The position numbers and the translations under genes are program-made. The notes under the pieces are model-generated. The model saw only the letters and a program-made list of their open reading frames with translations. It was not told where the DNA came from and made no database searches. Below are positions 1,582-63,545 of a DNA stretch of 64,000 nt, piece after piece (the first letter of the stretch is position 1; each line of letters begins with the position of its first letter). This DNA is from an uncultured Chloroflexia bacterium (lineage in GTDB: Bacteria > Chloroflexota > Limnocylindria > QHBO01): assembly GCA_963704115.1 (NCBI GenBank), contig CAVPGY010000001.1, positions 459,062-523,061 on the forward strand, in the 5' to 3' direction.

Positions 1582-3043
1582 CTAGAACAGGCTCGCCGCG
1601 GCCACCTCGAGGAGGTCGAGCGCGGCCCCCGGGAAGAGGCCGAGGAGGACGACAGCGGCCACCGAGACGGCCAGCGCAATCGATCCGAACGGCGAGCGGT
1701 CGAGTGGCGCCGGCTCGGCCTCCGGATCTCGCATGTACATGTAGACCACCACGCGCAGGTAGTAGAACGCGGCGAGCGCGGCATTGAGGACGATGATCAC
1801 CGCCAGCCATTCGAGGCCGGCATCGACCGAGGCGAGCAGCACGTAGAGCTTGGCGAAGAAGCCGACGGTCGGCGGGATGCCCGTCAGGCTCAGCATGAGG
1901 ATCGCCATCGCCGCCGCGAGGATCGGTGCCCGCGACGCGAGACCGGCGAACGAGCTCAGCCCGCCATAGCGCTTCGTGTCGCGCTGGAGCATGCCCACCA
2001 CGGCGAAGGCGGCGATGTTCATCACCGCGTACCCGAGCAGGTAGAAGAGCACCGACTCGATGCCCTGGGCGGCCACTGCGGCATCGTCGGTCGCGGCAAA
2101 GGCGGCCAGCCCGGCCATGATGTAGCCGGTGTGGGCGATGCTCGAGTAAGCGAGCATCCGTTTCACGTTCACCTGGGTGAGGGCCACGACGTTGCCCACC
2201 GTCATCGTCAGCACGGTGAGGACCAGGAAGATCGTCAGCCAGTCGGCGCGCACCGGAGCCAGCGCCTCGGCGAAGATCCGGATGAGGAGGGCGAAGGCGC
2301 CGAGCTTCGGACCGACCGACAGGAAGCCGGTGATGGGGGTCGGAGCTCCCTGGTATGCGTCCGGCGTCCAGTAGTGGAACGGGACGGCGGCGACCTTGAA
2401 CGTCCCGCCGACGAGCAGGAAGCCGATGGCGACCAGCATCGCCGGCGACAGGTCGCCGCCCATCGACGCCGCGACCTCCGCGATGTTCGTGGTGCCCGTC
2501 AGGCCGTACACCCAGGCGATGCCGAACAGCAGGATCGCCGACGCGAAGCTCCCCAGCAGGAAGTACTTCAGCCCGCCCTCGTTGCTGTAGCGGTCCGTCT
2601 TGTGGAGCCCGGTGAGCAGGTACGACGGCATCGTCATCAGCTCGAGGCCCAGGAACAGGGTGATCAGGTCGCTGCTCGAGGCCAGCACGAACATGCCGAG
2701 CAGCGCGCTGAGCAGGATGGTGTTGAACTCGCCGAGCGGGATCCGCCGGACCGCCAGGTAGCGCGGGAGCGAAGAGCGCGCTCAGGATGCCGATGACCAC
2801 GGACGCGCCCTTCAGGAAGACGCTCAGGTCGTCGACCACGTAGAACCCGGCGTACACCGTCTCGTTGATGTCCCACACCACGACGCACGCGGCACCGACC
2901 AGGATGAGCCCGGCCACGGTGAGCGGCGTGAGGATCCACTTGCCGGCGCGCGGCAGGAACAGGTCGGTGGTGATCACCACCAGCACCAGCGCGGCGAGGA
3001 TCAGCTCCGGGAGGAGCGTGACGAGGTCGTCGACGTAGTCCAT
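1582..3043 (-). CDS. nuoN: NADH-quinone oxidoreductase subunit N (one frame break)
   Basis: The N-terminus MDYVDDLVTLLPELILAALVLVV lies in the frame of ORF 80..3289. The rest is ORF 1582..2694 (LITLFLGLELMTMPSYLLTG, FHYWTPDAYQGAPTP). Removing one G from GGG 2765-2767 joins them as ...ILSALFAPRYLAVRRIPLGEFNTILLSALLGMFVL. Confidence 0.9.
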
Positions 3044-3054
3044 CAGGCCCTCAC

Positions 3055-4574
3055 TCACCACAGCGGCCCGAAGCCGGTCATGCCGGCGCCGTTGACCGCC
3101 TCGACGATCCGATCGATCGGCGCGGCGAAGAGCTCGAGCACCGGACCGGGGTAGACCCCGAGCGCGACGACCAGCACGATGAGCGGCGCCAGGGCGATCC
3201 ACTCGTTGCGGCTGAGGTCCTTCAGGTTCGGCCACCATCGGCGCATCCAGTCCGACGGAACGGTGAAGAAGACGCGCTGGAACATCCACAGCATGTAGAC
3301 CGCGCTGGCGATCACCACCAGCATCGTCGCCGCGGCCACGAAGCCGTTGAAGCGGAACGCGCCGAGGATGACGAGGAACTCGCCGACGAAGCCGGAGAGC
3401 CCCGGCAGCCCGATGCTGGCGAAGGTGAACAGGCCGAACATCGCGGCAAGTGCGGGAGCCGGGCGTTCAGGCCGCCCATGTGCGCGATCTGGCGGTCGTG
3501 GGTCTGCTCGTAGATGACGCCGACGAGGAGGAAGAGCGCACCGGTGGTGATGCCGTGGCTGATCATCGTGAAGGCGGCGCCCTGCAGCCCCTGCTCGTTG
3601 AAGACGAACGCGCCGAGCATCACGAAGCCCATGTGGCTGACGCTCGAGTAGGCGACCAGCTTCTTCATGTCCGGCTGGACCATGGCGACCAGCGCGCCGT
3701 AGAGGATGGCGATGACCGCCAGGCCGATGATGATCGGCGCGAAGCTCACCGCCGCGTCGGGCAGGAGCGGGATGCTGAAGCGCAGGAACCCGTAGCCGCC
3801 GAGCTTCAGCAGCACGCCGGCCAGCAGGATCGAGCCGGCGGTCGGGGCCTCGACGTGCGCGTCGGGAAGCCAGGTGTGGAGCGGCCACATCGGCACCTTG
3901 ATGGCGAAGGCCAGGAAGAAGGCGACGAAGGCGAGCGCCTGGAGGCTGTCGGTGTAGGCGAAGCCGCGCAGCGCCTCGTAGCTGAACGTGAGGGTGCCGG
4001 TCTCGTTGCCGTGCGCGATCACCACGGCCAGGATCGCGACCAGCATGAGGAGCGAGCCGACCAGGGTGTAGATGACGAACTTGACGGTGGCGTAGATGCG
4101 CCGCGGGCCGCCCCAGATGCCGATGACCAGGTACATCGGGATGAGGCTGATCTCCCAGAAGACGTAGAACAGGAACAGGTCGAGGCTGACGAAGACGCCG
4201 AGCATGCCCACCATGAGGAGCAGCAGCGCGATGTAGTACTCCCTCACCCGCGTCTGGATCGGCTCCCACGAGTAGAAGATCGCCACCGCGGACAGGAGGG
4301 TGGTGAGCAGCACCAGGACGAGCGACAGTCCGTCGACGCCCAGCGTGTAGCGCATCCCGAAGGCCTCGATCCACGGCAGGTCCTCGCGGAACTGGAACTC
4401 GGCGCCGGCCGGGTCGTAGCCCATCAGCATCAGGCTGAATCCGAAGCTCGCGAGCGACGCGAGCAGGGCGATCCAGCGGATGACCCGGTGGTTGTCGCCC
4501 GGGACCAGCAGCAGCGCCAGGACACCGATCACGGGCGTGAAGACGACCAGGGTGAGGATCGGCAGGTCGTTCAT
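3055..4574 (-). CDS. nuoM: NADH-quinone oxidoreductase subunit M (one frame break)
   Basis: ORF 3312..4574 carries WLPDAHVEAPTAGS and LVAYSSVSHMG. It continues in the frame of ORF 3055..4629 (APALAAMFGLFTFASIGLPGLSGFVGEF...). One base appears to be missing near 3459-3463. Confidence 0.9.
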
Positions 4575-4632
4575 GGTCGCCGCTCGATCGTATATACCGA
4601 TATACGCCGGGCCGCAGCCCGCAGGACACTCA

Positions 4633-6850
4633 TCAGCGCACCACCGTCGCGAAGACGAGGACCACGATCGCCAGGCCGGCGGCGATGCCGAGCCCGTAGT
4701 TCTCGACGCGGCCGGTCTGAACCTTGCGAAGCCCGCCGCCGATCGTCGAAGCCAGCCACCCGGCGCCGTTCACCGCGCCGTCGATGACCTTGGCATCGAA
4801 CCACCACAGGGCGTTGCTGACGAGCACGCCGCCCCGTGCCCAGACGAGCTGGTACAGGTCGTCGACGTAGTACTTGTTCACGCTGGCGCGATACATCCCC
4901 GGGCCGAGGCCGAGCGGGATGCGCTCGACGAACCGCGCCGGCGCATCGGTCCGGCGGACGTACCAGCGGTGGGCCAGCCATACGCCGGCGATCGCCACGC
5001 TGGCGCCCACCAGCAGCAGCAGGCCGCCGAGGCCGAACAGCTCGAAGTGGTGCGCCTCGCCCTTCTGGATGTACCCGTCGAGGTACGAACCGGGCAGGAC
5101 GCCGGCGTGCGCCTCCTCGGCGCCGAGGAAGACCTCCTCGAGCCAGTCGTGGATGATCCCTTCCTCGGGCGGGATGCCGAGGAAGAGGCCGATCAGGGTC
5201 GTCGGCACGGCGAGGATCATCAGCGGCGCGACCATCGTCATGGCGCTCTCGTGGACGTGGTCCCAGACCGCCTTCGGCCCGCGCCACTCGCCCCAGAAGG
5301 TCATGAAGATCATGCGGAACGTGTAGAAGGCGGTCATGAACGCGACCACGATCCCGACGCCGTAGAAGACGAGGTAGCCGCGGTTGAACGCCTCGGCCAG
5401 GATCTCGTCCTTGCTGAAGAAGCCGGCGAAGATCGGGATGCCGGCCAGCGCCAGCGAGCCGATGACCATGGTGATGTAGGTCCACCGCATCTTCGCGCGC
5501 AGGTTGCCCATGAAGCGCATGTCCTGCTCGCCGCCGGCCCCGTGGATCACGGAGCCGGAGCCCATGAACAGCAGCCCCTTGAAGAAGCCGTGGCTGACGA
5601 GGTGGAAGATCGCCGCCGTCCAGGCACCGATCCCGAGCGCCATGAACATGTACGCCAGCTGGCTCACCGTCGAGTAGGCCAGCACCTTCTTGATGTCGTT
5701 CTGGGTCAGCGCGATCGCCGCGGCGAAGATGGCGGTGAAGGTGCCGATGATGGCCACCACCCACATCGCGGTGGGCGCCTCGGCGAAGATCGGGTTGGCG
5801 CGCGCGACCATGTAGACGCCGGCGTTGACCATGGTCGCGGCGTGGATGAGCGCGCTGACCGGGGTCGGGACCCTCCATCGCGTCCGGCAGCCAGACGTGG
5901 AGCGGGAACTGCGCGCTCTTGCCGACGGCGCCGGCGAACAGGAGCAGGGCGATGAGGGTGATGGTGCCCTCGTCGAGCGTCCCGATCTGGTCGAAGACCT
6001 CGCGGAAGCTCAGCGTCCCGAGGTTGACCCAGATCAGCATGATCCCGAGCCCGAACCCGAAGTCGCCGACGCGGTTGACGACGAACGCCTTCTTCGCCGC
6101 GCCGGCCGCCGAGGGCTTCTTGTACCAGAAGCCGATGAGCGCGTAGCTGCACAGGCCGACCGCCTCCCAGCCGACGTACAGCATCAGGAAGTTGTCGCCC
6201 AGGATCAGCAGCAGCATGCTGAACATGAACAGGTTCAGGTAGGCGAAGAAGCGCCAGAAGCCCCGGTCGCCATCCATGTAGCCGATGCTGTAGATGTGCA
6301 CCAGGAAGCCGACGGTGCTCACCACCAGCAGGAGCATCGCGGTCAGCGCGTCGACCAGGAAGCTGATCTCGATGACGAAGTCGCCGGCCGCGATCCACTC
6401 GTAGATCGTGACCTCGCCCTCCTGGCCGCCGAAGATCACCTGGGCGAAGACGATCATGCTCAGGACCCACGACAGGCCGACGAAGGCGGTCGGGATCATC
6501 CACGACCGATAGCGCGGCCGCGCGCGCGCCCGGGGCTCACGTGCCCGGCCTGCCCGATCCCGTCGTTGAACTCGGCCGGGATGACGCCGGCGGCGCCCTC
6601 GGCGTTGGCGAGGTCGTCGGCGTGGCCGGCGTGCGGGCTGGTGGCCTGCTGCTCCTCCTCGGTCGGGACGCCGCGGAACGCGGAGTCGTCGACGTCGTGA
6701 TGGTCGTCGTGCGCGTCACCATGGTCGTCGTGCGCGTCGCTCGTGGCCGTGGCCGTGGACCGGCACGTGGTCGAGGCGCGGCCCGACGATGACGGCGAAC
6801 AGGAAGCCCGCCAGGGGCAGCGCGGGAATGAGGGCGATCAGCAGCTCCAT
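4633..6850 (-). CDS. nuoL: NADH-quinone oxidoreductase subunit L (at least three frame breaks, His/Asp-rich insertion after TM1)
   Basis: The ATG at 6850 has a GGGAAGG RBS and follows the nuoK stop. It opens MELLIALIPALPLAGFLFAVIVGPRL (NuoL TM1). The core is ORF 4571..6499 (MIPTAFVGLSWVL..., LHVWLPDAMEGP) joined to ORF 4633..5832 (TPVSALIHAATMVNAGVY after removing one G at 5867-5869). Further frame switches lie near 6742 and 6515-6540. Confidence 0.85.
6700..6759. repeat. tandem repeats inside the nuoL insertion: 2 x 21 bp followed by 3 x 6 bp
   Basis: atggtcgtcgtgcgcgtcacc (6700-6720) is followed by atggtcgtcgtgcgcgtcgct (6721-6741). Then come cgtggc, cgtggc, cgtgga (6742-6759). On the coding strand these encode HGHGH and DAHDDHG/DAHDDHH. 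Confidence 0.8.
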
Positions 6851-6860
6851 CGGCCTTCCC

Positions 6861-7166
6861 CTACTCCTTCAGGTCGGAGTACTGGTCGACCTCGGGGGTC
6901 TGCCGGGTCCGGATGATGGCGATGACGAGGGCGAGGCCCACGGTCACCTCGGCGGCCGCAACGGCCATGATCATCAGCGCGAAGACGGCGCCGGTGTTCG
7001 CGTCGGGCGGCAGGAACGCGTTGAACGCGACGAGGCTGAGGTTCACCGCGTTGAACATCAGCTCGATGCTGATCAGCATCAGGATCGCGTTCCGCCGGGC
7101 CATGAAGCCGAACACGCCGAGCCCGAAGAGCAGGGTCGAGACGATCAGGTAGCCCTCGATGCCCAT
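6861..7166 (-). CDS. nuoK: NADH-quinone oxidoreductase subunit K
   Basis: Intact 101-aa ORF MGIEGYLIVSTLLFGLGVFGFMARRNAILMLISIELMFNAVNL, typical of NuoK. Confidence 0.9.
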   Translation of the reverse strand: MGIEGYLIVSTLLFGLGVFGFMARRNAILMLISIELMFNAVNLSLVAFNAFLPPDANTGAVFALMIMAVAAAEVTVGLALVIAIIRTRQTPEVDQYSDLKE

Positions 7167-7169
7167 CGG

Positions 7170-7679
7170 TCAGTTCGCCCGCTCGTCTTCTTCCGGCCGC
7201 CGCGCGAGGTAGATGGCACCGATGATGGCAACGAGGATCAGCATGCTGATGATCTCGAAGGGAAGCGCGAAGTCGGTGAACAGCGCGGTCGCGATGTCGT
7301 CGACCGCGGCGCTCGCGGCCTCGGCAGCGAGGCCCCAGTCGGTCTGCACCACCGCCCAGCCGACCATCCCGACGATCGCCAGCGCCACCACGGCCGCGAT
7401 CGGCAGCTGCCGATGGAAGGGCGCCGGCAGGTTCGCGTCACCCGCCTGGGTGAGCATGATGGCGAACAGGATGAGCACACTGATGGCGCCCAGGTAGATG
7501 AGGACCTGGGCGGCAGCCACGATCGGCGCGCCGAGCAGCGCGTACATCCCGGCCAGTGATCCGAAGCAGATCATCATGGCCACGGCCGAATGGATGATGT
7601 TGCGCAGCGTGACGACGGCCAATCCGCCCCCCACCACGCCGATGGCGAGCAGGAAGAAGAGGACGCTGGAGATGTCCAG
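7170..7679 (-). CDS. nuoJ: NADH-quinone oxidoreductase subunit J (start uncertain)
   Basis: ORF 7170..7637 has LRNIIHSAVAMMICFGSLAGMYALLGAPIVAAAQVLIYLGAISVLILFAIML. The frame stays open upstream to an in-frame CTG at 7679, which lies 8 nt after a GGAG. That extension adds LDISSVLFFLLAIGV. The listed GTG at 7637 is the alternative start. Confidence 0.8.
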   Translation of the reverse strand: MDISSVLFFLLAIGVVGGGLAVVTLRNIIHSAVAMMICFGSLAGMYALLGAPIVAAAQVLIYLGAISVLILFAIMLTQAGDANLPAPFHRQLPIAAVVALAIVGMVGWAVVQTDWGLAAEAASAAVDDIATALFTDFALPFEIISMLILVAIIGAIYLARRPEEDERAN

Positions 7680-7879
7680 GGTCGGTGCTCCGATGCGAAG
7701 TGTCGAGCGCTCAACGGCCCCGCTCGGGGGCCGTGCTCGATTCTAGCGCAGCCTCCCGTGCCGCTGCGCGCTGCTGGGATTCCGCTGCCGGCGTAGAGCT
7801 CGGGCGAAGATGGAACCGCGTCACGCGTCTTCGCCGCCATAGTGTCGACAGCGTCCCAACTTCACGGTAGGGAGGCCCG

Positions 7880-8531
7880 ATGGATCAGGTCCTCGTCGAG
7901 CGCGCAATGCACGGCGACGACGACGCGTTCGCGGATCTCGTGAGCGCGTCGTTCGACCGCATGTATACCGTCGCCGGCCTGATCGTCGTCGACCGTGCGC
8001 TCGCGGACGATGCCGTCGAGGCGGCACTCACTGCCGTCCGCGTGGCAGCGGGGGACGTTCGCCGCCTGCCCGGCTACACCTCGCGGAGACGCTGTCCCGG
8101 CAGGCTCGGCGGCATCGTCGGCTCGCGGAGCGCCTTCGCGACTGGCGACGACAGCTGGGCGCCGACCGGCGGCGCGCCGACGACGACTGACCACAGATCG
8201 ATCGTGACCCTCCAGGACACACGCGGCGCACGTCGTGTCGGCGACCGCGACGTTCACCTGGGAATCGAGAACTCCTGACGCGCCGGACGGCGTCGTCGAG
8301 ATCACGGCGCCGTCATCGCCCCAAGGCGGTGACTGGGACATGAATACCATTGCTCCGACCTGGCGGTTGCCGCGGGCATGTGGTCGTCGACGCGCGGCAC
8401 CCTTCCCGGCGGCCACCTCGTATGCCGCGATGTGGCTGGCACAGGCGGCCGCGCGATCGCGTGCTCGGCGCCATGCAGCCGATGCTCGTCGGCCGCGGGT
8501 CGATGGCGTCGGAGAAGGACCACCCGCATGA
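7880..8531 (+). CDS. ECF-type sigma-70 family factor, frame-broken (tentative)
   Basis: The N-terminus MDQVLVERAMHGDDDAFADLVSASFDRMYTVAGLI..DRALADDAVEAAL resembles sigma-70 region 2. A weak region-4-like stretch (SYAAMWLAQAAARSRARRH) lies in another frame near 8420-8480. That frame ends in a TGA overlapping the next ATG (ATGA at 8528-8531). Confidence 0.4.
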
Positions 8532-9404
8532 ATGATCGCCGGCTCACCGACGTCGAGCTCCGGAGCTACCTCCGCCGACGCGCCATGGACCCGGATGCCC
8601 ACCTGCTCGACCGCATCCTCGGGAGACCGAGACGATGCCACGGACCGACACCTGCGTTTCGCCCGCGTCTCGGCTCCGCTGGTGGCGCGACGCGGCGCCT
8701 GCCGGCGCCGTGAGTCGGCCGCGCGACGGGGTCGGGGGGCGTGGCAGAAGAGGCCGCGAAAGCGATGCCACAGACGCACCCTGCGTTTCGCCGCCGTCAC
8801 GGCCCCGCTCCTGGCGCTGGCGGCAGCAGCCCTGCTCGGGGCCATCCTCGTCTTCGGGCCGCCGTCGGTCCCGGGTCCCGGCCGACCACCGACCCCCACC
8901 GAGCATGCCTGCGCCGGCCGGCCCGCGCAGTTCGAAGGCGAGACGGTGCGCGCGGTCGTGCTGACCGATTCCTCCGGCGTCGTGCAGTCCTGCCGGCTCA
9001 TCACGTTCGAGGAGACGCAGTTCACCGGATCACTGACGGGAGCCGAAGCCGTGAACACCGACGGCATCCAGACCCGTCTGCAGGTGTTCTGGCCCATCGC
9101 GAACTGCGACCGAGACGCGGCGATTGACGTGGAGGGCAGCGTCACCGGGCTCGCGATCGTGGTGCTCCAGCACCGGGAGGGGGAATGCGCGGGGGGCAGC
9201 GGTCTGCAAGCCGTCGAACTCCAGCTGTCGACACCCATCCCTGCAGCGACGGCCGATGTGACGCTGACCTACCGCTGTCAGGCGGGCGGCGAGTCCCGGA
9301 CCCTGACGACACGGGTCGGCCGGGCCGTTCGGTTCGGAACGACGTGCCGGTGCGGCAGGGTCGCTCACCGAGCTGTCGTAGACGGCTCGCCAGTCGGCGC
9401 GTGA
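8528..9404 (+). CDS. membrane-anchored anti-sigma-like protein with extracytoplasmic Cys-containing domain (copy 1), frame-broken
   Basis: Starts MNDRRLTDVELRSYLRRRAMDPDAHLLDRILG in the frame of ORF 8378..8713. Continues in ORF 8532..9404 with a TM segment RFAAVTAPLLALAAAALLGAILVFG. A roughly 110-aa domain follows (VVLTDSSGVVQSCRL...TRLQVFWPIANCD...ECAGGSGLQAVELQL). Confidence 0.4.
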
Positions 9405-9419
9405 CCTCAGTCAGGGTGA

Positions 9420-9760
9420 ATGACCGGGGCCCAGGGCACCATCGTCGACACGACGGGCCTCGTGCTCGGCTGTCGCGACATCGGTTCCCTGGTCATCAGC
9501 CCTCCGGCGGTGAACCCCGACGGCGTGCTGACTCGCCTTGAGGTTCGCTGGCCCCTGGCCGGCTGCGATACCGGGCCGGCGACGGTCGAGATCACGTTGG
9601 CTGGTGGGCGCTACCTTGTCCGCGTGTTCCAGCAGCGTGAATCCGGTCCGCCCGCCTGCGCGGGCTCGGGGGGAGGGCGATCGAGCTCACGCTCGCTGGT
9701 CCGATCCGCGCGTCGGCGACGGAGGTGATCCTCGACCCGGTGCCCATCGAGCGAGACTGA
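9420..9760 (+). CDS. second copy of the ~100-aa Cys-containing domain (separate ORF or continuation of the previous gene)
   Basis: ORF 9420..9728 (GTIVDTTGLVLGCRD...TRLEVRWPLAGCD...PACAGSGGG) parallels the domain at about 8935-9290. After a one-base correction in the G run near 9670 it continues RAIELTLAGPIRASATEVILDPVPIERD to a TGA at 9758-9760. Confidence 0.35.
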
Positions 9761-9795
9761 CGCCGCGGCATCGAGCCCGCCGCACCGACGTCAGC

Positions 9796-12223
9796 TCAGC
9801 GGGTCGGGCGCTCCCGGTCGCTCATCTCGAGGATGTCGAGCATCGGCAGGTCGCGCTGGTACTCGCTGAACTCGAACTCGGGTCCGCAGCGCAGCGCGTC
9901 GTACGGGCAGGCATCGGCGCAGATGCCGCAGAAGATGCAGCGGGACACGTCGAGCTGGTACGTCTCCAGGATGCGCGGCCGCGGCATGAGCGCGCCGACC
10001 GGGCAGGTCTCGGCGCATCGGCCGCAGGAGACGCACGGCGTCTCGTTGAGGGACACGAAGTCGGCGGTGGTGACGAGCGAGTCGAAGCCCTTGCCGATGA
10101 AGTCGTAGCAGCCGGCGCCGACGATCTCCTTGCACACCTGGGCGCACCGGCCGCAGTCGATGCAGCGGGAGTAGTCGCGCAGGATGAAGGAGTGCGTCTC
10201 GTCGCGGCCGTAGCCGTGGTTGACGCCGACGTACGGGTTGTCCTGGATCGAGCGCTCGTCGATCGCCATGTTCAGCGTCGTCTCGTACTCGATCGCCGCC
10301 TCGCGCAGGTCGCAGTGGCCGATCGCCTCGCAGGTGCACTGCAGGCAGCGCGACGCCTCGGCCATGGCCTGGTCGCCGGTGTAGCCGAACTCGTACTCGT
10401 TGAAGTTGTCCGACCGCCCCTCCGGGCCGAGCTTGCCCATGATCGCGCGCGGCTCCTTCACGTCGTCGGTGAAGGGCACGATGGTCAGGAAGTTCGGCTG
10501 CGGCTCGGTGACGATGCGGCGCACCTGCGGGTCGTCGAGGTCGTGCCCGCGCAGCCAGTAGTCGATGGCGTAGCTGGCGCGCCGGCCCTCGCCGATGGCC
10601 TCGACCACTGTCGCGGCGCCGGTCCGGACGTCGCCCGAGGCGAACACCTTCGGGACGTCGGTGCGGAAGATGTGCTCCTCGGCCACCAGGGTGCCGCGCC
10701 GGCTGATCTCGAGCTTCGAGCGGATCTCCTCCGGCTCGGCCTCGACCCAGGAGAGGTCCGGCCCCTGGCCGATGGCGCCCAGGACGGTGTCGCACTCGAC
10801 GATGAACTCGGTCCCGGGCATCGGCTCCGGGCGGCGGCGACCCTGCGCATCGGGCTCGCCGAGCTTCATGCGCTGGAACTCGACGCCGGTGACCTTGTTG
10901 TTGTCGTCGGTGACGATGCGGGTCGGTGCGGCCTGGAAGATGACGCGCGCGCCCTCCTCGATCGCCTCGTGGACCTCGTCGGCGGCCGGCATGTCCTTCA
11001 GGTCGCGGCGGTAGACCAGGGTGACCTCGGCCGAGCCCTGGCGGACGGAGGTGCGGGTGCAGTCGATGGCGGTGAAGCCGCCGCCGATGACGACCACCTT
11101 CGCGCCCTTCAGGCGCGGGATCGGGATGCCGCGCGTCGAGTTGTAGAGGTTCTCGAGCGCGTTCACCACGCCGTCGGCATCCTCGCCCGGGATGCCGAGC
11201 TCGTTCGGCTTGTAGCAGCCGATGCCGACGTAGACGGCGTCGTAGCCGTCGTCCAGGAGATCGGCGATGTGGAAGTCGCGCCCCAGCCGCATGTTCGGCT
11301 TGAGGGTCGCCCCGAGCTCCCAGACGTGGTTGAGCTCGCGGTCCATCCACGACTTCGGGCAGGCGGTACTGCGGGATGCCGTAGCGGAGCATGCCGCCCT
11401 GCTCCGGCTCCGCCTCGAACACGTCGCACTGGTGGCCGCGCAGCTGAAGGTAGTACGCGGCGGCCATGCCGGCCGGGCCGGCGCCGATGACCGCGACCCG
11501 TCGCCCGGTGGCGGGCTCCTTCGGCCACGGGATCGGGGCGGGGGCATCGACCTCGAGCACGCGGTCCGCGCAGTAGCGGTGCGAGTCGCGGATCGCGATG
11601 GCGGTGTCCACCTCCTCGCGCCGGCAGTGCGTCTCGCACGGAGCGGGACAGACGCGGCCGAGGATGGCGGGGAACGGGAGCGAGCGCTTGAGGATGCGCG
11701 TCGCCTCCTCCCAGTTGCCCAGCGTGTTCTGCTTCAGGTAGCCCGGGATGTCGACGCGGGTCGGGCATTTGAACTGGCACGGGGGCAGGCAGTAGGCGTC
11801 GTGGTCGCTGAAGATGAGCTCGAGCACCATGCGCCGGTTCTCGATGACGCGATCGGAGTGGGTGGTGATGACCATCCCCTCCTCGATCGCGGTGCCGCAC
11901 GAGATCGGGGTGTCGTCGCGCCCCTCGACCTCGACCGCGCAGATGCGGCAGGCGCCGTACGGGGCCAGCTTCGGTTCGTAGCAGAGCGTCGGGACGTCGA
12001 TGCCCAGCACCCGGCAGGCCTGGAGGATGGTCTGGCCCTCCTCGGCCTCGACCTGCGTCCCGTTGATGGTGACGCTGATCGTGCGGGTGCCCGGCACCAT
12101 CGGCCACAGCGGCGTGTAGTCGGCGACGTGGTCGTTCTTGCCGTACGTCCCGTTCCCGGCGTTGCTCGCGCCGTTGCCGTTGCCGTTGCCGGCCGCGTGG
12201 CCGTTCGTCGTTCCGAAGCCCAT
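9796..12223 (-). CDS. nuoG: NuoG-like Fe-S subunit chimera: [2Fe-2S] domain, GltD-type FAD/NAD(P)H oxidoreductase domain, further Fe-S motifs, C-terminal half of NuoI (one frame break)
   Basis: ATG at 12223 with an AGGA RBS. N-terminal [2Fe-2S] region: TLCYEPKLAPYGACRICAVEVEG..ISCG. Then LELIFSDHDAYCLPPCQFKCPTRVDIPGYL...GRVCPAPCETHC and VAVIGAGPAGMAAAYYL...GGMLRYGIPQYRLP, both GltD-like. Removing one G at 11357-11359 continues into ORF 9796..11547 (KVVVIGGGFTAIDC, FASGDVRTGAATVVEAIGEGR). Downstream motifs are RCLQCTCEAIGHCDL, RCIDCGRCAQVC and PCVSCGRCAETCPVGAL. The tail is NuoI-like: YQLDVSRCIFCGICADACPYDALRCGPEFEFSEYQRDL. No molybdopterin-like domain. Confidence 0.8.
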
Positions 12224-12229
12224 CGGTTC

Positions 12230-13607
12230 CTACTCTAACGGGGTCGTCGCCGGCTGCCGGATCGAGCCCGGCCAGCGGCTGGAGGAGGGGGGCGACCTCG
12301 CTCACCCGGCACGCGCCGGCCAGGCAGACGCCCCGTTCGGCGTGCGCGCGGTACTCGTCGCCGAAGCGGTCGAGCGTGGTGAGGATCGGTCCGGGAGCCA
12401 GCCGCTCCAGCTTGCAGAGCGCCGTGTCGCTCATCTTGGCGGACAGCTCGCGGAGCAGTGTCGGGTCGTTGGGGCGCGGGGTGGCGGCCAGGATGCGGTC
12501 CATCGTCTCGACCAGCCGCTTCGTGCCGATGCGGCACGGCACCGCCTTGCCGCACGCCTCGCGGGCGCTGAAGTCGATGAAGAAGCGGGCCGTGTCGACC
12601 ATGCAGGTCTGGCTGTCGGTCACCAGCACCGATCCGGAGCCGACGATCGCGCCCTCGGCCTCGAGCGTCTCGTAGTCGTACGGAATCGTCAGCGAGCCGG
12701 CGTCGATCGCGCCGCCGCCCGGGCCGCCGATGAAGAGCGCCTTGGTGGCGCCGGTCCCACCGCCCGCCATGGTCAGCAGTTCGATGAGCGGCGTGCCGAA
12801 CGGCACCTCCACCAGCCCGGGTTCGGCGACCCGACCCATCACGGTGACGAGCTTCGTGCCACGCGCCGACTCGCTGCCGACCGAGGCGAAGGCGTCGGCG
12901 GAGTGGGCGATGATCCAGGCCGCGTGCGCCAGGGTCTCGGCGTTCTGCACCACGGTCGGCGCGCCGTCGAGGCCGTGCGTGGCAGGGAACGGCGGACGGA
13001 TGGCCGGCATGCCGCGGTCGCCGGCAAGCGCGTTGATGAGCGCTGTCTCCTCGCCGGCCACGTACGCGCCGGAGCCTTCCCACACCGACAGCTGGATGCT
13101 CACGTCGGTCCCGAGCACGAGGTAGCCGGCCAGGTGCGCCTCGGTCGCCTCGCGCGCCGCGGCGCGGAGACGCTCGATCGCGACCGTCCAGTCGCGGCGG
13201 ACCGCGACGATCGCCTCGGATGCGCCCGTGGCGTACGCCGCGATGAGCAGCCCCTCGACGACGAGGTGCGGGTTGCCCTCGGCCAGGGCGCGGTCACCGA
13301 GCGCGCTGGGGTCCGCGGCCATCAGGTTGGCCACCACGATCCTGCGGTCGGCCTCGGTGTCGCGCGCGGCGCGCCACTTGGCGGCGGTCGGATATCCGGA
13401 ACCGCCGCGACCCCGCAGCCCCGCGGCCTCGATCTCGAGGATCACCTCCTCCGGGGCGAGCTTCGTCACCGCCCGCTCGAGCGCGGCGTAGCCGGAATGG
13501 TCGCGGTAGCTGGCCAGGCTGGTCGGGTCGACGCGGCCGATGTCGGTCAGCAGCCGCGGCTCGCCGGAGGGCAGGATTCGGATCTGCGGGGAGATGGTGC
13601 TCGTCAT
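12230..13607 (-). CDS. nuoF: NuoF-like subunit (divergent cofactor motifs; 3' end uncertain)
   Basis: The ATG at 13607 overlaps a TGA (ATGA). Motifs present: MTSTISPQ..., GLRGRGGSGYPTAAKW, GSGAYVAGEETALINAL, RPPFPATHGLDGAPTVVQNAETLA, ACGKAVPCRIG, ALCKLERLA. As given the frame has no stop. Removing one C from the C6 run near 12285 ends it at TAG 12230-12232, 6 nt before the next ATG. Confidence 0.8.
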
Positions 13608-14466
13608 CGGCCGGCGGTCCCCGACGCCCCGGCGCTTGCGACGCCTTGCTCGTGCGGCTCGCGCGACGGCGCTCCTCGACGACGTGGAGCGCCTTGTCGG
13701 CGTCGACCGGCCCGTAGACCAGCGTGTCGATGCGAATGGCCGGGCTGATCGCGCCGGCCCCGACATCGGGCCGCGTCTCGAGGCTGAAGGTGCCATCGGG
13801 CGTGGTCTCGCCCGCCCGGATGCCGAGCTCCGACTCGATGGCGCGAAGCACGGCGTCCCCGCCGCTGAAGCGGCACGAGGCACAGTCGCACACGGTGATG
13901 AGGTGCCCGGTCGCCGGGAGCAGGCGGAAGCCGCCGAGGCCCGCCGCGCCGAACACCTGGGCCCAGTGGATCGTCATCCGGTCGCTGATGCGTCGCAGCG
14001 CGCGCTCGGGCAGGTAGCCGTACCGCTCCTGGACGGCGCCGAAGATGGCGACGAGTGCCTCGGCACGTCCGCCGAAGCCGTCGACGATCTCGTCCACGGC
14101 CGGGGTGTCGATCTCCTCGTCCCAGCGCGCGGGGTTGCGCATCGGACGGGCGGCCAGCCCGGCGCGACGGTAGGCGTTGGGGTCACGCCGCTCGTCGTAG
14201 ATCTCCGGCATGCCGTAGCGGATCCGGTTGCCCTCCGAGTCGAAGCCGCTCATGTCGATCGCCTCCACCGGGCAGACCTGGGCGCACTGGAAGCAGACCT
14301 CGCACTTGTGCTCGCCGAACGGGTCGTAGATCAGGTCGAGCCGACCGCGCCAGCGGTCGGGGATCGGCGGCCGCTCCTCGGGGTACTGGCGCGTCACCTT
14401 CGGCGCGAAGAAGTTCTTGAAGGTCGTCGCCATGCCCTTGGCGATGCCGAGCCCGGGGAAGGTCAT
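13604..14466 (-). CDS. nuoE: fusion of the N-terminal half of NuoI (one 4Fe-4S motif) with a NuoE-like thioredoxin-fold domain
   Basis: ATG at 14466 with a GAGGA RBS after the nuoH stop. NuoI-like start: GIAKGMATTFKNFFAPKVTRQYPEERPPIPDRWRGR...KCEVCFQCAQVCPVEAI...RIRYGMPEIY. The same frame then runs into NuoE-like sequence: ALVAIFGAVQERYGYLPERALRRIS...HLITVCDCASCRFSGG...TTPDGTFSLE...SPAIRID. As given there is no stop before 13294. Removing one G from the G4 run near 13630 ends it at TGA 13604-13606, overlapping the nuoF ATG. Confidence 0.8.
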
Positions 14467-14482
14467 CGGTGCATCCTCACGA

Positions 14483-15495
14483 TCACAGGTCGAACACCAC
14501 GACCGCGATGGCGGTGACGAACAGGTTGACGAGGGCGAGCGGCAGCAGGACCTTCCAGGCCATGTTCATGAGCTGGTCGACGCGGACGCGCGGGAGCGTG
14601 CCGCGCAGCCAGACGGCGACCGCCACGAAGATGTAGGTCTTGAGGAAGAACCAGAACGTGCCGTACAGGGTCCCGGCGAAGCCCTCGAGCTGCGCGGGGA
14701 ACGGCCACGGCGCCAGGAAGCCGCCGAAGAAGAGCGTGATGAGGATGCCGCTCATGATGAAGAGCGCGACGTACTCGGCGAAGAAGAAGAAGCCGAAGCG
14801 CATGCCCGAGTACTCGGTGAACGGACCGGCCACGAGCTCGCGAGTCGGCCTCGACCATGTCGAACGGCGTGCGGTTGATCTCCGCCAGGCTGGCGATGTA
14901 GAAGATGCCGAGCGCCGATCGGCTGCCAGACGAACAGCCAGCCGTTCTCGCGCTGCCAGGCGATCAGGTCGCTGAAGCTCAGCGTGCCGGCCAGCACCAC
15001 CGCGCCCACGATCGAGAGCGTGAGCGGGATCTCGTAGCTGACCATCTGGGCCGCGGCGCGAAGGCCGCCGAGCAGCGAGTACTTGTTGTAGCTCGCCCAG
15101 CCGGCCACCAGCAGCCCGACCACCGACAGGCCCAGGACGGCGAAGAAGTAGACGATGCCGATGTTGAAGTCGGCGGCGATGGCGCCGGGCGCGAAGGGGA
15201 TGACGAGCATGCTCATCGCCGCCGCCATGTAGACCATCCACGGGGCGAGGGTGAACGTCGCGGTCGGCCTGGTCGGGGATGGTGTCCTCCTTGGCGAGGA
15301 CCTTGAAGCCGTGGATCGTCGCTCTGGAACATGCCGCTTGGGCCCGACGCGGTTCGGACCCGAAGCGCAGGTGATCCGCGCGATCAGCTTCATCTCCATC
15401 TGGATGATGATGAACGCGGTCGGCACCGTCAGCAGCAGCAGCAGCGTGGTCGCCAGGACGAATCGGCCGATGCCGAGGAGCAGCTCGAAGTCCAT
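14483..15495 (-). CDS. nuoH: NADH-quinone oxidoreductase subunit H (at least five frame breaks)
   Basis: Pieces lie in three frames. They are MDFELLLGIGRFVLA...SGPNRVGP, GMFQS, IHGFKVLAKEDTIPDQADR, TFTLAPWMVYM...SYNKYSLLGGLRAAAQMVSYEIPL, INRTPFDMVEA and ELVAGPFTEYSGMRFGFFFFAEYV...LPRVRVDQLMNMAWKVLLP. Together they make a complete NuoH. Confidence 0.85.
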
Positions 15496-15498
15496 CGG

Positions 15499-16787
15499 CT
15501 ACTTGTCCACGCCGCCCATGACCGGGTCGAAGCTCGCCATGACCGCCATCGTATCGGCGACCAGGCGGCCCGGCATGAGCTTCGGGATCGCCTGCAGGCT
15601 GATGAAGCTGGGGTCGCGCATCCGGAACCGATACGGGTTCGGGCCGCCGTCGCTGATGGCGTAGACGCTGTAGAGGCCGCGCGGCGACTCGACCGCGCCG
15701 TAGGCGCGTCCGGGCTTCGGCCGGATGATGCCCGGCACCTGGGCCTGGACCGGGCCGTGGGGCATCTTGTCGATGATCTGGTCGATCAGGTGGATGCTCT
15801 GCTTGATCTCGGCGATGCGCTGCAGGTAGCGGGAGTACGAGTCGCCGCCGGGCTGGGTGATCACGTCGAACTCGAGCTCGTCGTAGATCGAGTACGGATG
15901 GGCCTTGCGCACGTCGAACGGCACGCCGGACGCCCGCAGGTTCGGACCGGACACGCCGAGCCGATGGCGCCTGCGCCCGGTGAGCACGCCCATGCCCAGG
16001 GTGCGGCCGCGGAAGATCTCGTTCTCGGTGATCATCGCCTCGTTCATCTCGATGTTGTCGAGCACGTGCGCGCGCCACGTCCCGAGGCGGCTGAGGAACT
16101 CGTCGTTCGTGTCGAAGTTCACGCCACCGACGCGGAAGAAGTTGAAGAGCATGCGCTGGCCGCTGATCGCCGAGAGCATGTCGACGACCTCGTCGCGATT
16201 GATGAAGGCGTAGAGGATCGGGGTCAGGCCGCCGATGTCGAGCGCCAGGAAGCCCATCATCAGGCCGTGGCTGAAGATCCGGTTCAGCTCCACCACCAGC
16301 GCGCGGATGTACTCGGCCCGCGGCGGCGCCTTGATGCCGTACAGCTTCTCGAACGCGATCGCCGGCGCGTGCTCGTTGTGCATCGTCGACAGGTAGTCCA
16401 TCGGGTCGACGTAGGTGAGCACCGTGGTGTACGTCGCGTTCTCGCACAGCTTCTCGATGCCGCGGTGCAGGTAGCCGAGCACCGGGTCGACGTCGACCAC
16501 GATCTCGCCGCGCACCTTGACCACGATCCGCATCACGCCGTGGGTCGACGGGTGCTGCGGCCCCATGTTGACGAGCATCTCGCCCTCTTCGAGGGCTGTA
16601 GACCTCGCGCTCGCGCTCCGTCTGCGGCGGACGATCGGGGATGCCGACGGTGTCGAAGCCGGCGTACTCGCACCGCCGGCTCGGCGAGCCGGGACCCACG
16701 CCGGCGGCCGCACGCAGACGCTCCTCCTCGGCGCCGATCGAGCTCGATCGGGTCGGGGATGCGGGTCTCGGGATCGATCTTCGTCAT
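15499..16787 (-). CDS. nuoD: NADH-quinone oxidoreductase subunit D (N-terminal frame breaks)
   Basis: ORF 15499..16713 has MLVNMGPQHPSTHGVMR...GYLHRGIEKL...ESPRGLYSVY...DPVMGGVDK. The N-terminal part sits in other frames (EREREVYSP; [16 protein letters not shown]). The ATG at 16787 overlaps the nuoC stop (ATGA). Confidence 0.85.
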
Positions 16788-17428
16788 CGCGGTCGGCTCG
16801 TGGAGGCCGGCGTCGTCTCGCCGCTCTCGGTGGTGTCGAGGCGGGCTCGGGGGTAGGCCGACGCGGAGGAGCGCGCAGCTCGTCCTTGAAGCGGGCGAGG
16901 TCCCAGGTCTCGGGACGCTCGAGCGGGTTGACGCCCGCGGCCGCGGTAGTCGGCCGCGTCGTCCGGCAGGACGAAGTCCCTGCGCTGCGGGAAGGAGCGA
17001 TAGTCGGGCGACATGTAGATGCGGCGCAGGTCGCGGTTGCCCTCGAAGACGATGCCCATCATGTCGTACATCTCGCGCTCGTGGAACATCGCGCCCTCCC
17101 ACAGGCGCGGTGATCGGTCGGGATGCGCGGGTCACGGCTCGATCGACGCGGGCGCGAACGCGGACCCAGGCGGGATGCTTCCAGCTGAACAGGTGGTAGA
17201 CGACCTCGAAGTGGGCATCGGACCCGTAGTCGACGGCGGCCGCATCGGCCAGGAAGAAGAAGTCGAGGTCAGGGTCGTCGCGCAGCGTGGCGCAGCACGT
17301 CGACGTTCCGCGCAGCGTCGACCTGGAACTCGACGGTGTCCTCGTCGGTCCACAGGCTCGCGCACGGCGTCGCCGAGCCGCTCGTGCAGGAGGCGGACGA
17401 GCGCGCCGGCGGTGGCGGGCGCGCTCAG
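16784..17428 (-). CDS. nuoC: NADH-quinone oxidoreductase subunit C (several frame breaks, start uncertain)
   Basis: Fragments are [72 protein letters not shown] and [24 protein letters not shown]. The only nearby start-like codon is a CTG at 17428. It overlaps the nuoB stop (CTGA) and follows AGGAGA. Confidence 0.7.
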
Positions 17429-18127
17429 CGGACGTCTCCTTCCCAGCTCGTGCGCTGCGGGCCTCGATCGACGTAGGTCCGCCACTGGCCGCGGCGCTGC
17501 TTGACGAGCTCGTGGAGCTTCATCATCCCGTAGATCAGGCCCTCCGGGCGCGGGCGGGCAGCCCGGGACGTAGACGTCGACCGGCATGACGCGATCGACG
17601 CCCTGCACGACGGAGTACGAGCGCTTGAAGCGGCCGCCGGAGGTCGTGCAGGTGCCCATCGCCACGCACCACTTCGGCTCGGGCATCTGCTCCCAGAGGC
17701 GGACGAGCGGCCCGGCCATCTTCGTCGTCAGCGTGCCCGGCCACGATCAGCACGTCCGCCTGGCGCGGGCGAGGCGCGGAAGGGGAACATGCCGAAACGG
17801 TCGATGTCGTTGACGCTCGTCGCGGTGCTCATCATCTCGATGGCGCAGCAGCTGAGGCCCGAGAGCAGGGGCCACAGCGAGTTGGCGCGGATGAGGTCGA
17901 GGATGTAGTCGGCCTTGGTCGGGATGACCTCGAGCAGGCCGTGGAAGCCACCCTGGGGGTGCTCCTCCATCTGGAAACGGCGGAGCAGCTCGTCGCCACC
18001 GGCCGCGTCCGGGATGATGATCGGTCCGCCTGCTCGGGGCGCGAGGGCGCGGCTTCGTCGAAGCCGCCGCAGCCGTCTTCGCCGCGGGCTTAGCGCGGGT
18101 CGCCGTTCGCTTCTTCGACTTGTCCAC
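17425..18127 (-). CDS. nuoB: NADH-quinone oxidoreductase subunit B (frame breaks; Lys/Ala/Pro-rich N-terminal extension)
   Basis: GTG at 18127 ([28 protein letters not shown]...). Core: [40 protein letters not shown], then LIVAG...[24 protein letters not shown]...[10 protein letters not shown]. Removing one G at 17552-17554 gives [16 protein letters not shown]... and the TGA at 17425-17427. Confidence 0.8.
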
Positions 18128-18481
18128 TGCCGCAGGTCACCCTTCTTCCACGCGTAGAACTCACCGAACATCAGGATCGCAAGGAAGATGCCGATGAGCA
18201 CGATCCCCTGGAACTCGATGCGCGCGCACCGTGATGGCCCACAGGTAGACGAAGATGATCTCGACGTCGAAGGCCACGAAGAGCAGGGCGTAGAGGTAGA
18301 AGGCCAGGCCGAAGCGGCTCCACGTGTCGCCGATGGTGTCGATCCCGCACTCGTAGGGCAGGCCCTTCTGCGGGCGCCGTCGCCGATGCGTGATGAGCCA
18401 GCTGAACAGGATCGTGCCGAAGACGAAGAGCGTCGCGGCGAAGGCGAATCCGATGACGTAGAGCAGGCCGGTCTGATCCAT
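18090..18481 (-). CDS. nuoA: NADH-quinone oxidoreductase subunit A (one frame break; 3' end uncertain)
   Basis: ATG at 18481, 8 nt after GGAG. Sequence: [30 protein letters not shown]...[10 protein letters not shown]...[20 protein letters not shown]. After a frame switch near 18225 it continues [29 protein letters not shown]. No in-frame stop as given. The TAA at 18090-18092 is reached only after a further one-base correction. Confidence 0.75.
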
Positions 18482-60985: not shown

Positions 60986-61371
60986 CCCGCGTCGGGGCCC
61001 CGCCGACGGAGGATGGACGCCTCGACGGTGTCGAACGACCCGTCGATCGGCGCCTCCGGCTTGCGGACGCGCACCTCGACCGCGTCGACGACCTCCGACG
61101 GCGTGGCGGCCAGGACGGCGCGCGCGATCGAGCCGGCCAGCCCCTCGATGAGGTCGTGCGACGTGCCCTCGACGATCGCGCGCACGAGGTCGAAGAGCGC
61201 CGCGTAGTCGACCGTGGCCGCGAGGTCGTCGCGCTCGGCGGCCTCGGTCAGGTCGGCATGGAGGACCAGGTCGACCTCGAACGGCTGCGCGTCCACCTTC
61301 TCGGTGGGCAGGACGCCGTGGCGGCCGAGGAACCGCATGCCGAGCAGGCTCAGGCGATCGGGCGCCGTCAT
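60982..61371 (-). CDS. folB: dihydroneopterin aldolase
   Basis: MTAPDRLSLLGMRFLGRHGVLPTEKVDAQPFEVDLVLHADL...TVDYAALFDLV. The ATG at 61371 overlaps the folP stop (ATGA). Confidence 0.8.
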   Translation of the reverse strand: MTAPDRLSLLGMRFLGRHGVLPTEKVDAQPFEVDLVLHADLTEAAERDDLAATVDYAALFDLVRAIVEGTSHDLIEGLAGSIARAVLAATPSEVVDAVEVRVRKPEAPIDGSFDTVEASILRRRGPDAG

Positions 61372-63541: not shown

Positions 63542-63545
63542 GAGG

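Follow-up and report, generated by a model that had tools for sequence, protein, structure and literature searches.

A predicted complex I operon with a StnC/NfnA-type flavoprotein subunit and a divided nuoI gene in Candidatus Limnocylindria

The stretch of DNA analyzed here (the window; 64,000 nucleotides, positions 459,062 to 523,061 of contig CAVPGY010000001.1, assembly GCA_963704115.1) originates from an uncultured Chloroflexota bacterium of the Limnocylindria lineage and carries a cluster of complex I (nuo) genes on its minus strand. Within this cluster, a gene extending from a start codon at 12223 to a stop codon at 9796-9798 encodes a predicted BfuA/StnC-like iron-sulfur flavoprotein joined to the C-terminal half of NuoI. 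The gene (9796..12223) is covered by two overlapping open reading frames (ORFs), 9791..12223 and 9796..11547. Translation from the ATG at 12223 is sensible as far as ...GIPQYRLP / ...GGMLRYGIPQYRLP and then continues into Arg/Pro-rich nonsense. The second ORF (9796..11547, +1 frame) is sensible from ...KSWMDRELNHVWELG to the stop at 9796. The frame switch is located at cgcctgCCCgaag, in a CCC run (11357-11359) with a surplus of one base. Removal of one C restores RLPKSWMDRELN / RLPKSWMDREL and leads to a protein of 808 residues, hereafter the fusion protein. The relative L001 (91% identical) has one base fewer in exactly this CCC stretch, and ten database proteins of 794 to 811 residues (85-91% identical) are all uninterrupted. 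Since relatives with 85-93% identity are uninterrupted, the frame break is a sequence error or a private mutation rather than a feature of the family. The same relatives show that the region is one gene and not two adjacent genes.

A previous reading of the window from its letters and ORFs (the sequence-only reading) had described the product of this gene as a NuoG-like subunit carrying a GltD-type FAD/NAD(P)H domain. All the motifs that it quoted are present in the translation from 12223 to 9796, namely CYEPKLAPYGACRICAVEV..ISCG, LELIFSDHDAYC, CLPPCQFKCPTRVDIPGYL..GRVCPAPCETHC, VAVIGAGPAGMAAA, and KVVVIGGGFTAIDC, followed by FASGDV..VVEAIGEGR, CLQCTCEAIGHCDL, CIDCGRCAQVC, and CVSCGRCAETCPVGAL. 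The protein opens with a Gly/Asn-rich leader (residues 1-46; 12086..12223), which is variable and unconserved in relatives and was modeled with a predicted local distance difference test score (pLDDT) below 35 by AlphaFold2 (AF2). The leader is followed by a [2Fe-2S] domain of the NuoG/HydA type (residues 47-123; 11855..12085; Pfam Fer2_4, E 3e-20) with invariant cysteines at positions 81, 92, 95, and 109. The first part of a His-ligated [4Fe-4S] motif (H141-x3-C145; 11786..11836) matches positions 1-17 of the 40-position Pfam model NADH-G_4Fe-4S_3 (PF10588), with 24.4 bits for a cut-off of 27. Immediately 3' of this partial motif lies an inserted GltD/NfnB-like module (10345..11785), which comprises two [4Fe-4S] sites, a FAD Rossmann fold (GAGPAG), and a NADPH-type Rossmann fold (GGGFTAID...YRR), and which was recovered by Pfam (Fer4_20, residues 146-224, E 2e-19; Pyr_redox_2, residues 242-546, E 2e-27), by the PDB search, by Foldseek, and by AF2 modeling. 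The remainder of the His-cluster motif (CLQCTCEAIGHC) and a ferredoxin-like domain with two [4Fe-4S] motifs (CIDCGRCAQVC and CVSCGRCAETCP; Pfam Fer4 / Fer4_7, residues 680-778) are encoded by 9988..10344, again with invariant cysteines. The last segment (9799..9987), ILETYQLDVSRCIFCGICADACPYDALRCGPEFEFSEY..., corresponds to the second half of NuoI, as indicated by its C-terminal motif RCIFCGICADACPYDAL..EFEFSEY. Thus, among the Pfam domains named in the sequence-only reading, Fer2_4, Fer4_20, and Pyr_redox_2 were detected, and NADH-G_4Fe-4S_3 matched only in part and under its cut-off.

The central region of the protein combines the features of GltD/NfnB-type domains: matches to Fer4_20 and Pyr_redox_2 over the Pfam thresholds, the GxGxxG motif for FAD, and GGGxTAxD followed by YRR, plus the Arg. 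The corresponding residues G247/G249/G252, G380-G382, and Y404-R405-R406 are invariant in the Limnocylindria alignment, as is R287, which aligns with R239 of StnC. The PDB search aligned residues 47-772 of the fusion protein, colinearly and in one stretch, with residues 2-700 of NfnA from Caldicellulosiruptor saccharolyticus (9bov_A, 1e-165) and of StnC from Sporomusa ovata (8oh5_C, 1e-152). The match to NfnA from Thermococcus sibiricus (9n5u_A, 6e-143) was colinear over the first approximately 700 residues of the chain. Searched by itself, the GltD part scored 356 and 347 bits against NfnA, 318 against StnC, 284 against NfnB, and 241 against GltD, and its nine best PDB matches were all NADPH enzymes. 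An AF2 model was obtained for a close relative, P0003, from an alignment of 39 sequences, with pLDDT values of 80-95 for the GltD part. Foldseek placed 9bov_A, 8oh5_C, and 9n5u_A first among the structures similar to this model, followed by NfnB, GltD, and DPD, and the TM-score of the model to NfnB and GltD chains was 0.76-0.79 (normalized to the length of those chains). The GltD-like character of the central region, recognized in the sequence-only reading, is therefore borne out by Pfam, the PDB search, and Foldseek.

In-silico excision of residues 146-626 raised the PF10588 score from 24.4 to 33.2 bits, over the cut-off, and extended the match from positions 1-17 to positions 1-35 of the model. 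The excised sequence also matched in one stretch the N-terminal iron-sulfur domains of HydA1 (2e-41), FDH-alpha, and NuoG. Because excision restores a contiguous iron-sulfur domain of the NuoG/HydA type, the GltD insertion is located inside the His-ligated (N5/FS4C-type) cluster motif. By homology, the fusion protein is assigned as a StnC/NfnA-type (BfuA) subunit with a GltD-like FAD/NADPH domain inserted in this motif. In StnC, the GltD-like NADPH/FAD domain occupies residues 102-565 of a NuoG-like protein, which also carries an inactive FdhF-like domain (residues 683-1172) (PMC10482914). Since StnC has the GltD insertion and still carries the FdhF-like domain, the proposal that GltD stands instead of the molybdopterin-like domain of NuoG was wrong: the place of the missing domain is taken by the C-terminal half of NuoI. 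The molybdopterin-like/Fdh domain is absent, as the protein ends at residue 808 and its last 63 residues are NuoI-like, not StnC-like. The NCBIfam model for NuoG (TIGR01973) scored 103.6 bits for a cut-off of 470 and aligned over model positions 1-95 only. His215 of the fusion protein (approximately 11579-11581) aligns with StnC Lys170, a residue essential near cluster C7 (PMC10482914), and is invariant both in the Limnocylindria proteins and in the Thermoleophilia form described below.

The other half of NuoI was found two genes upstream. This gene opens with MTFPGLGIAKG...YPEE...CEVCFQCAQVCPVEAIDM and continues in frame with a NuoE-like thioredoxin-like domain. Its product, I_N::E, thus begins with the N-terminal half of NuoI, containing one CxxCxxCxxxCP motif (14224..14466; PDB search, NCBIfam, and splice test), followed by a linker and a NuoE/StnA-like domain (13620..14223, end approximate; Pfam 2Fe-2S_thioredx, E 7e-25) with a C-x-C-x2-C motif. 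The PDB search matched residues 8-80 to NuoI/TYKY and residues 116-270 to HydC/StnA/NuoE, the best match to a chain of the Nfn/Stn complexes being 2e-21. The NCBIfam model for NuoI (TIGR01971, 121 positions) aligned by its positions 1-76 with I_N::E and by its positions 71-112 with the C-terminus of the fusion protein, both matches being under the cut-off. The spliced halves gave a single colinear match to TYKY/NuoI over both ferredoxin motifs (E 5e-25), with the junction in the loop between the motifs. The first CxxCxxCxxxCP motif is therefore carried by I_N::E and the second by the fusion protein, approximately 3.7 kb apart. In ferredoxin folds of this kind, the fourth Cys ligand of each cluster is supplied by the motif of the other cluster. 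Since a lone CxxCxxCxxxCP motif cannot complete its clusters, we infer that the two halves pair. Together, these matches indicate that nuoI is split by an E-F-G' module, with one half preceding the NuoE-like protein and the other following the A subunit, both as in-frame fusions. The sequence-only reading had missed both this split and the remodeling of the subunit encoded by the intervening gene (12238..13607), a NuoF/StnB-like FMN subunit reduced to its core, in which NLMA is found for NADE and CGKAVPC for the N3 motif (Pfam, PDB search, and alignment).

The remaining genes of the cluster place the module inside a complex I operon, as had been proposed. On the 5' side (within 14486..18481) lie nuoA (18130-18481), nuoB (17431-18033), nuoC (16882-17297), nuoD (15502-16787), and nuoH (14486-15495), which are interrupted by frame changes save for short stretches. 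On the 3' side (within 1585..7742) lie nuoJ (7173-7610), nuoK (6864-7166), nuoL (4636-6850), nuoM (3058-4574), and nuoN (1585-3043). The gene order is thus nuoA-B-C-D-H-[I_N::E]-F-[G'::GltD::I_C]-J-K-L-M-N. The 11 core subunits of complex I (A, B, C, D, H, I, and J-N) are clustered according to tblastn and Pfam, NuoI being present only as two halves. The operon contains no further nuoI or nuoG. This order is that of an 11-subunit operon with E-F-G' inside nuoI and does not match the canonical order A-D, E-F-G, H-N. The NuoB motifs for cluster N2 (ACCAMEMM...GDCTCSGG...GCPP) and the NuoD motif GPQHPSTHG are intact in the relative L002, and NuoD of the window has QHPSTHG. A spacer of approximately 2 kb (7743..9795) separates the fusion gene from nuoJ. 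It contains only weak ORFs and no recognized domain; Pfam gave no match, and none of 87 related loci resembles it in nucleotide sequence. A plus-strand ORF of the spacer (7880-8278) had been guessed to encode an extracytoplasmic function sigma factor, for which Pfam found nothing. In 65 loci, spacers located here range in length between 27 bp and 7.6 kb, and the cluster therefore probably forms two transcription units in many members.

In the PDB search, the NuoF-like protein (approximately 455 residues) was closest to NfnB (9bov_B, 1e-123) and StnB (1e-120), with values down to 1e-103 for the NfnB/StnB/HydB set and 1e-78 for NuoF of complex I. Pfam detected Complex1_51K, SLBB, and NADH_4Fe-4S only. 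The alignment to StnB begins at StnB residue approximately 100 and stops short of its C-terminal domain. The protein thus has neither the thioredoxin-like N-terminal domain (B5) nor the C-terminal domain with two [4Fe-4S] clusters (B3, B4). Each of the 71 NuoF-like relatives has N[LG][MF][GEA]A in place of the NADE signature, and Ala or Thr where the N3/B1 motif would have its second Cys (CGK[AT][VI]PC), so that a four-Cys B1 site is not present. The Tyr preceding GEET is Leu in 25 of these sequences. The FMN loop GLRGRGGxG[YF]PT, GEET, and the three N3 cysteines are invariant in the 71 sequences. In the NuoE-like part (approximately 13870-13900 and 13750-13790 in the window), C-x-C-x2-C is invariant, the canonical C-x3-C is gone, and D, C, or E occupies the position of the third canonical Cys, which makes an unusual ligand set for a [2Fe-2S] cluster of the N1a/C1 type. 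An initial view that the NuoE-like protein has lost its cluster was revised, since the three invariant cysteines together with D/C/E make a re-ligated cluster just as likely as loss. These two subunits are the least conserved between two Limnocylindria subclades, with 45% identity for F and 38% for I_N::E versus 57-68% for B, D, G, and H. Li et al. (2025; PMC11829005) reported that homologues without B2-B5 sites are non-bifurcating and that deletion of B3/B4 abolishes bifurcation. As the B subunit of Limnocylindria is trimmed of both domains needed for ferredoxin-linked bifurcation and its flavin surroundings are remodeled, the enzyme is predicted to be non-bifurcating.

A scan of species-representative genomes identified at least 581 species genomes encoding a relative of the fusion protein. 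The best 80 genome matches were almost all metagenome-assembled genomes (MAGs) of Candidatus Limnocylindria/Chloroflexota. The gene order was identical in the 83 loci examined (83/83, Candidatus Limnocylindria). Thousands of database proteins carry the intact fusion, and more than 100 clusters of full-length I_N::E proteins (273-289 residues) are annotated as 'subunit E' only. The arrangement thus appears to be conserved in hundreds of uncultured soil bacteria. In Limnocylindria relatives displaying 60-93% identity, all cluster cysteines, H141, H215, the FAD motif, GGGFT..D, YRR, and the NuoI motif are invariant. When Thermoleophilia members were added, the Cys and His ligands held, but YRR and the full second Rossmann motif did not. 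Current annotations of the three proteins are 'formate dehydrogenase major subunit', 'FAD-dependent oxidoreductase', and 'subunit E', and none of the NCBIfam models for NuoG, NuoF, NuoE, and NuoI reaches its cut-off on them. NuoG and NuoI are therefore probably recorded as absent from these genomes in automated surveys.

Other differences were observed among these loci. NuoH has 463 residues in one Limnocylindria subclade (L002/L003, 6387-7778) versus 336 residues in the subclade of the window (L001, 6760-7770), and NuoB and NuoC of the L002/L003 subclade have long low-complexity extensions. Operons of the Limnocylindria type were also present in MAGs labeled Steroidobacteraceae, Zixiibacteriota, Dormiibacterota, Binatia, and Anaerolineaceae (L013, L029, L044, L048, L066, and L078), which are probably mis-binned contigs or mislabeled bins.

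A sister form of the operon was found in Thermoleophilia. A profile search covering 1.84 billion representatives mostly returned StnC/NfnA-like proteins of 1000-1400 residues, the size of representatives having the Fdh-like domain, which matched only up to the ferredoxin domain. One divergent protein of 816 residues had a NuoI tail, and the same operon is present on the contigs that encode this protein and its relatives. For this sister form, 982 matches were obtained at E ≤ 1e-100, the named ones being Thermoleophilia or Actinobacteria MAGs. Loci L084, L086 (genes at about 6084-7994), and L087 are located in Actinomycetota MAGs. The B subunit of the sister form (636-641 residues) has the thioredoxin-like N-terminal domain and two C-terminal [4Fe-4S] motifs, and is thus a complete BfuB. 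The motifs NGDEGDPGAF, CGKCVPC, and CHGTAC..CVGAC are canonical. The second nucleotide-binding motif, GGGFTAMDAC..YRR, is canonical in 99 of 120 Thermoleophilia-type proteins. In a small sub-lineage comprising P0134, P0273, and P0276 (loci of the L084/L087 type), GGGFTAMDAC is replaced by GDGFAA.EAC and YRR is missing, which suggests that NADPH binding has changed or been lost there. The absence of YRR in P0134 had prompted the idea of a 'reciprocal decay' of the two nucleotide sites, which was ruled out by the 99 canonical proteins. The sister form may represent the ancestral state, and is possibly a ferredoxin-linked complex I. Because the sister form keeps a complete BfuB and canonical sites, the Limnocylindria form seems to derive, by trimming, from a complete Nfn-Bfu module that had been spliced into NuoI. 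The two forms resemble consecutive steps, in which a full core of the bifurcation type (Thermoleophilia) was later trimmed (Limnocylindria).

The closest known systems are the soluble complexes StnABC and NfnABC (8OH5, S. ovata; 9BOV, C. saccharolyticus; 9N5U, T. sibiricus), in which the genes have the same E-F-G-like order and the A subunit has the same layout, with a [2Fe-2S] domain, a GltD-like domain in the His-cluster motif, and two [4Fe-4S] clusters. Their chains are the best sequence matches of the three proteins of the window (1e-165, 1e-123, and 2e-21) and the best fold matches of the fusion protein, in agreement with the earlier suggestion that the set NuoE, NuoF, and [Fe-S + GltD] is of the Stn/Bfu kind. 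In contrast to these complexes, the A subunit of the window lacks the Fdh/molybdopterin-like domain, which in Stn is required for assembly of the tetramer (PMC10482914), and ends in one half of NuoI, whereas the C subunit opens with the other half. Missing from the B subunit are the thioredoxin-like and ferredoxin domains, as well as NADE and one B1 Cys. Finally, the module is encoded inside a membrane complex I operon. The domains of NfnB, GltD, and DPD resemble the inserted domain by the association of Fer4_20 and Pyr_redox_2 with FAD and NADPH motifs, but the domain of the window is internal to a NuoG-type protein and has the invariant His at the position of StnC Lys170.

Canonical complex I shares with the window the cores of E and F, the N-terminal iron-sulfur domain of NuoG, the NuoI motifs, and subunits A-D, H, and J-N, including the conserved N2 motif of NuoB and HPSTHG of NuoD. 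In canonical operons, E-F-G lies between nuoD and nuoH, whereas in the window E-F-G' follows nuoH and lies inside nuoI, NuoI is divided between two polypeptides, and NuoG has a flavoprotein insertion and no molybdopterin-like domain. Among previously reported variants, the membrane complexes termed Nuo-Bfu and Mbh-Bfu were predicted by Schut et al. (2022; PMC9304861) for members of the Deferribacteres, Proteobacteria, Planctomycetes, and Nitrospirae. In the parts of that report that bear on the comparison, a Bfu-type ABC module likewise lies in the middle of complex I-like or Mbh-like genes and replaces NuoEFG, but the complexes are defined by 14 separate subunits and a BfuABC of the bifurcation type, a description that the module of the window does not fit, and these parts mention neither a GltD-type A subunit nor a split NuoI. 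Under the BfuB search criteria given there, the B subunit of the window would have been missed because it has no ferredoxin domain. For Thermotoga, Degli Esposti (2015; PMC4758237) described Mbx-like operons whose GltD-like flavoprotein substitutes for NuoI, in a complex of the Mrp-Mbx type. The likeness lies in a GltD-type NAD(P)H flavoprotein tied to the position of NuoI; in contrast, the window keeps NuoI, as two halves, together with a whole E-F-G' module, a true nuo operon, and a quinone-type NuoD. In the literature searched, including a 2025 survey of complex I variants and a survey of Chloroflexi, no split NuoI or GltD/Stn-type module was found in complex I of Chloroflexota or Thermoleophilia, which is not proof of absence. 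A complex I with an input module derived from Stn/Nfn is apparently undescribed.

In our view, the product of the gene is probably the BfuA/StnC-type subunit of a complex I that is non-canonical in having a three-gene module of the Nfn/Stn type inside nuoI, with NADPH as the probable electron donor. In such an enzyme, the NuoI halves would pair, rebuild clusters N6a and N6b, and tie the input module to NuoB/D. The GltD-like domain would contain FAD, which would be reduced by NAD(P)H, most probably NADPH. Electrons would cross the two [4Fe-4S] clusters of this domain into the NuoG-type clusters, along a chain of the StnC type, and leave via the rebuilt NuoI for N2 and then quinone, which would power proton pumping by NuoH/J-N. 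The exit via NuoI would be on the side where Stn carries, in its Fdh-like domain, two branch clusters that were judged by the authors to be non-functional in electron transfer (PMC10482914). The architecture of the module, its homologies, and its conservation are established by the sequences, and from these the assembly of the complex, the direction of electron flow, the nucleotide specificity, and proton pumping are inferred.

Several observations weigh against this reading. All members of the family are MAG or metagenome sequences, and they are known from sequence alone. The NADPH specificity assigned to the GltD-like site follows solely from motif conservation with NADPH-dependent homologues. 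In the AF2 model of P0003, the C-terminal 180 residues (619-798), including the NuoI half, had pLDDT values below 35. For the spliced NuoI, modeled as a single sequence, the value was 42, so that pairing of the halves is a matter of sequence logic. By itself, the window, with approximately 16 frame changes over its nuo genes, is compatible with a decaying operon. Finally, the NuoF-like subunit may be fully active, with NADH as the main donor, because the FMN phosphate loop, GEET, and the three invariant cysteines are kept.

If the FMN site still handles NADH, the complex would have a dual input or act as a built-in transhydrogenase. Both sites, FMN for NADH and FAD for NADPH, would then be active, either nucleotide could feed quinone, and NADH and NADPH would equilibrate over the shared iron-sulfur chain. 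We regard this as the strongest of the alternatives, although somewhat improbable. The invariance in 71 sequences of the FMN loop, GEET, the three N3 cysteines, and the three NuoE cysteines argues for retained cofactors, Stn itself has NADPH:NAD+ oxidoreductase activity (PMC10482914), and both kinds of site are fully canonical in the Thermoleophilia form. On the other hand, NADE and the second N3/B1 Cys have been lost in all of these sequences, the Tyr preceding GEET in about a third, and F and I_N::E are the fastest-evolving subunits. For this lineage, the count of two nucleotide sites made in the sequence-only reading is thus uncertain.

Reverse operation is unlikely. According to this alternative, the proton-motive force and quinol would drive reduction of NADP+ and/or NAD+ at the flavin of the GltD-like domain, and organisms growing on high-potential donors would in this way obtain NADPH for biosynthesis. 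Complex I and the Stn/Nfn enzymes are reversible in principle (for Stn, PMC10482914), and the GltD-type site is of the NADP(H) type by its motif. However, the sequence is silent on direction, and no carbon-fixation or lithotrophy gene is linked to the operon in the window.

It is very unlikely that the operon of the window is decaying and this copy of the gene a pseudogene, or that the fusion is an artefact of assembly or represents two genes lying side by side. In addition to the frame break in the fusion gene, tblastn with the Nuo proteins of L001 revealed the approximately 16 frame changes in 17 kb, affecting A, B, C, D, H, G', L, M, and N. At the expected site (12236-12260), the nuoF-like ORF does not terminate in frame and continues to 11163; comparison with L001 attributes the missing stop to a one-base gap just ahead of it, a TAG being found five codons on in the shifted frame. 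However, the break in the fusion gene lies in the middle of the GltD fold and not at a domain boundary, and both frame halves are approximately 93% identical to an intact relative, each given by tblastn as a single long match. Within frame-consistent nuo segments, amino-acid identity to L001 is 75-97%. Among the three flanking non-nuo genes that could be compared, a hypothetical gene (19609-19781) is likewise shifted in frame, suggesting that indels are frequent throughout the sequence, and the DinB_2-like and glycosyltransferase 20 genes are intact. More than 80 independent loci and the thousands of database proteins have the fusion intact. The window, which has a G+C content of approximately 70%, is therefore read as indel-rich sequence of the long-read type rather than as a case of decay. 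Farther along the window, folate genes at 60982-63592 appear as fused ORFs (Mur_ligase_M/C with Pterin_bind, and Pterin_bind with FolB), and these may be further indel artefacts, not true fusions.

An electron-confurcating or bifurcating 'Nuo-Nfn-Bfu' complex I, whose flavin-plus-two-cluster core would couple NAD(H), ferredoxin, and NADPH to quinone, as proposed for Geobacter Nuo-Bfu, is the least probable alternative of all, for although the module descends from bifurcating Nfn/Stn enzymes, the Thermoleophilia relatives retain a complete BfuB, and Schut et al. predicted membrane-bound Bfu complexes (PMC9304861), the absence of the B3, B4, and B5 sites, without which homologues do not bifurcate (PMC11829005), and the altered B1 and C1 ligand sets contradict it for the lineage of the window.

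In the prevailing view, complex I receives electrons from NADH via NuoEFG or, in 11-subunit relatives, from ferredoxin or F420. To our knowledge, no complex I has been shown to take NADPH input via a flavoprotein subunit. More tentatively than for the preferred assignment as a complex I with a StnC-type subunit, and at slightly less than even confidence, we propose that complex I gained a NAD(P)H-oxidizing module a second, independent time, by entry of an entire Nfn/Stn-type transhydrogenase operon into nuoI of an 11-subunit ancestor. The product would be a proton-pumping NADPH (or dual):quinone oxidoreductase, and the Thermoleophilia form, in which the core of the bifurcation type is intact, could couple NADH, NADPH, and ferredoxin to quinone in aerobes. 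If this is true, the enzyme would be the first proton-pumping NADPH:quinone, or dual NADH/NADPH, oxidoreductase of the complex I type, and it would be present in Limnocylindria and Thermoleophilia, two classes that rank among the most abundant in soil. The split of NuoI, with in-frame fusions at both junctions, would be a clear record of the attachment of a soluble redox module to a membrane pump. In these bacteria, an input of the NADPH type would give the nucleotide pool used in anabolism a direct connection with the respiratory chain and with proton pumping.

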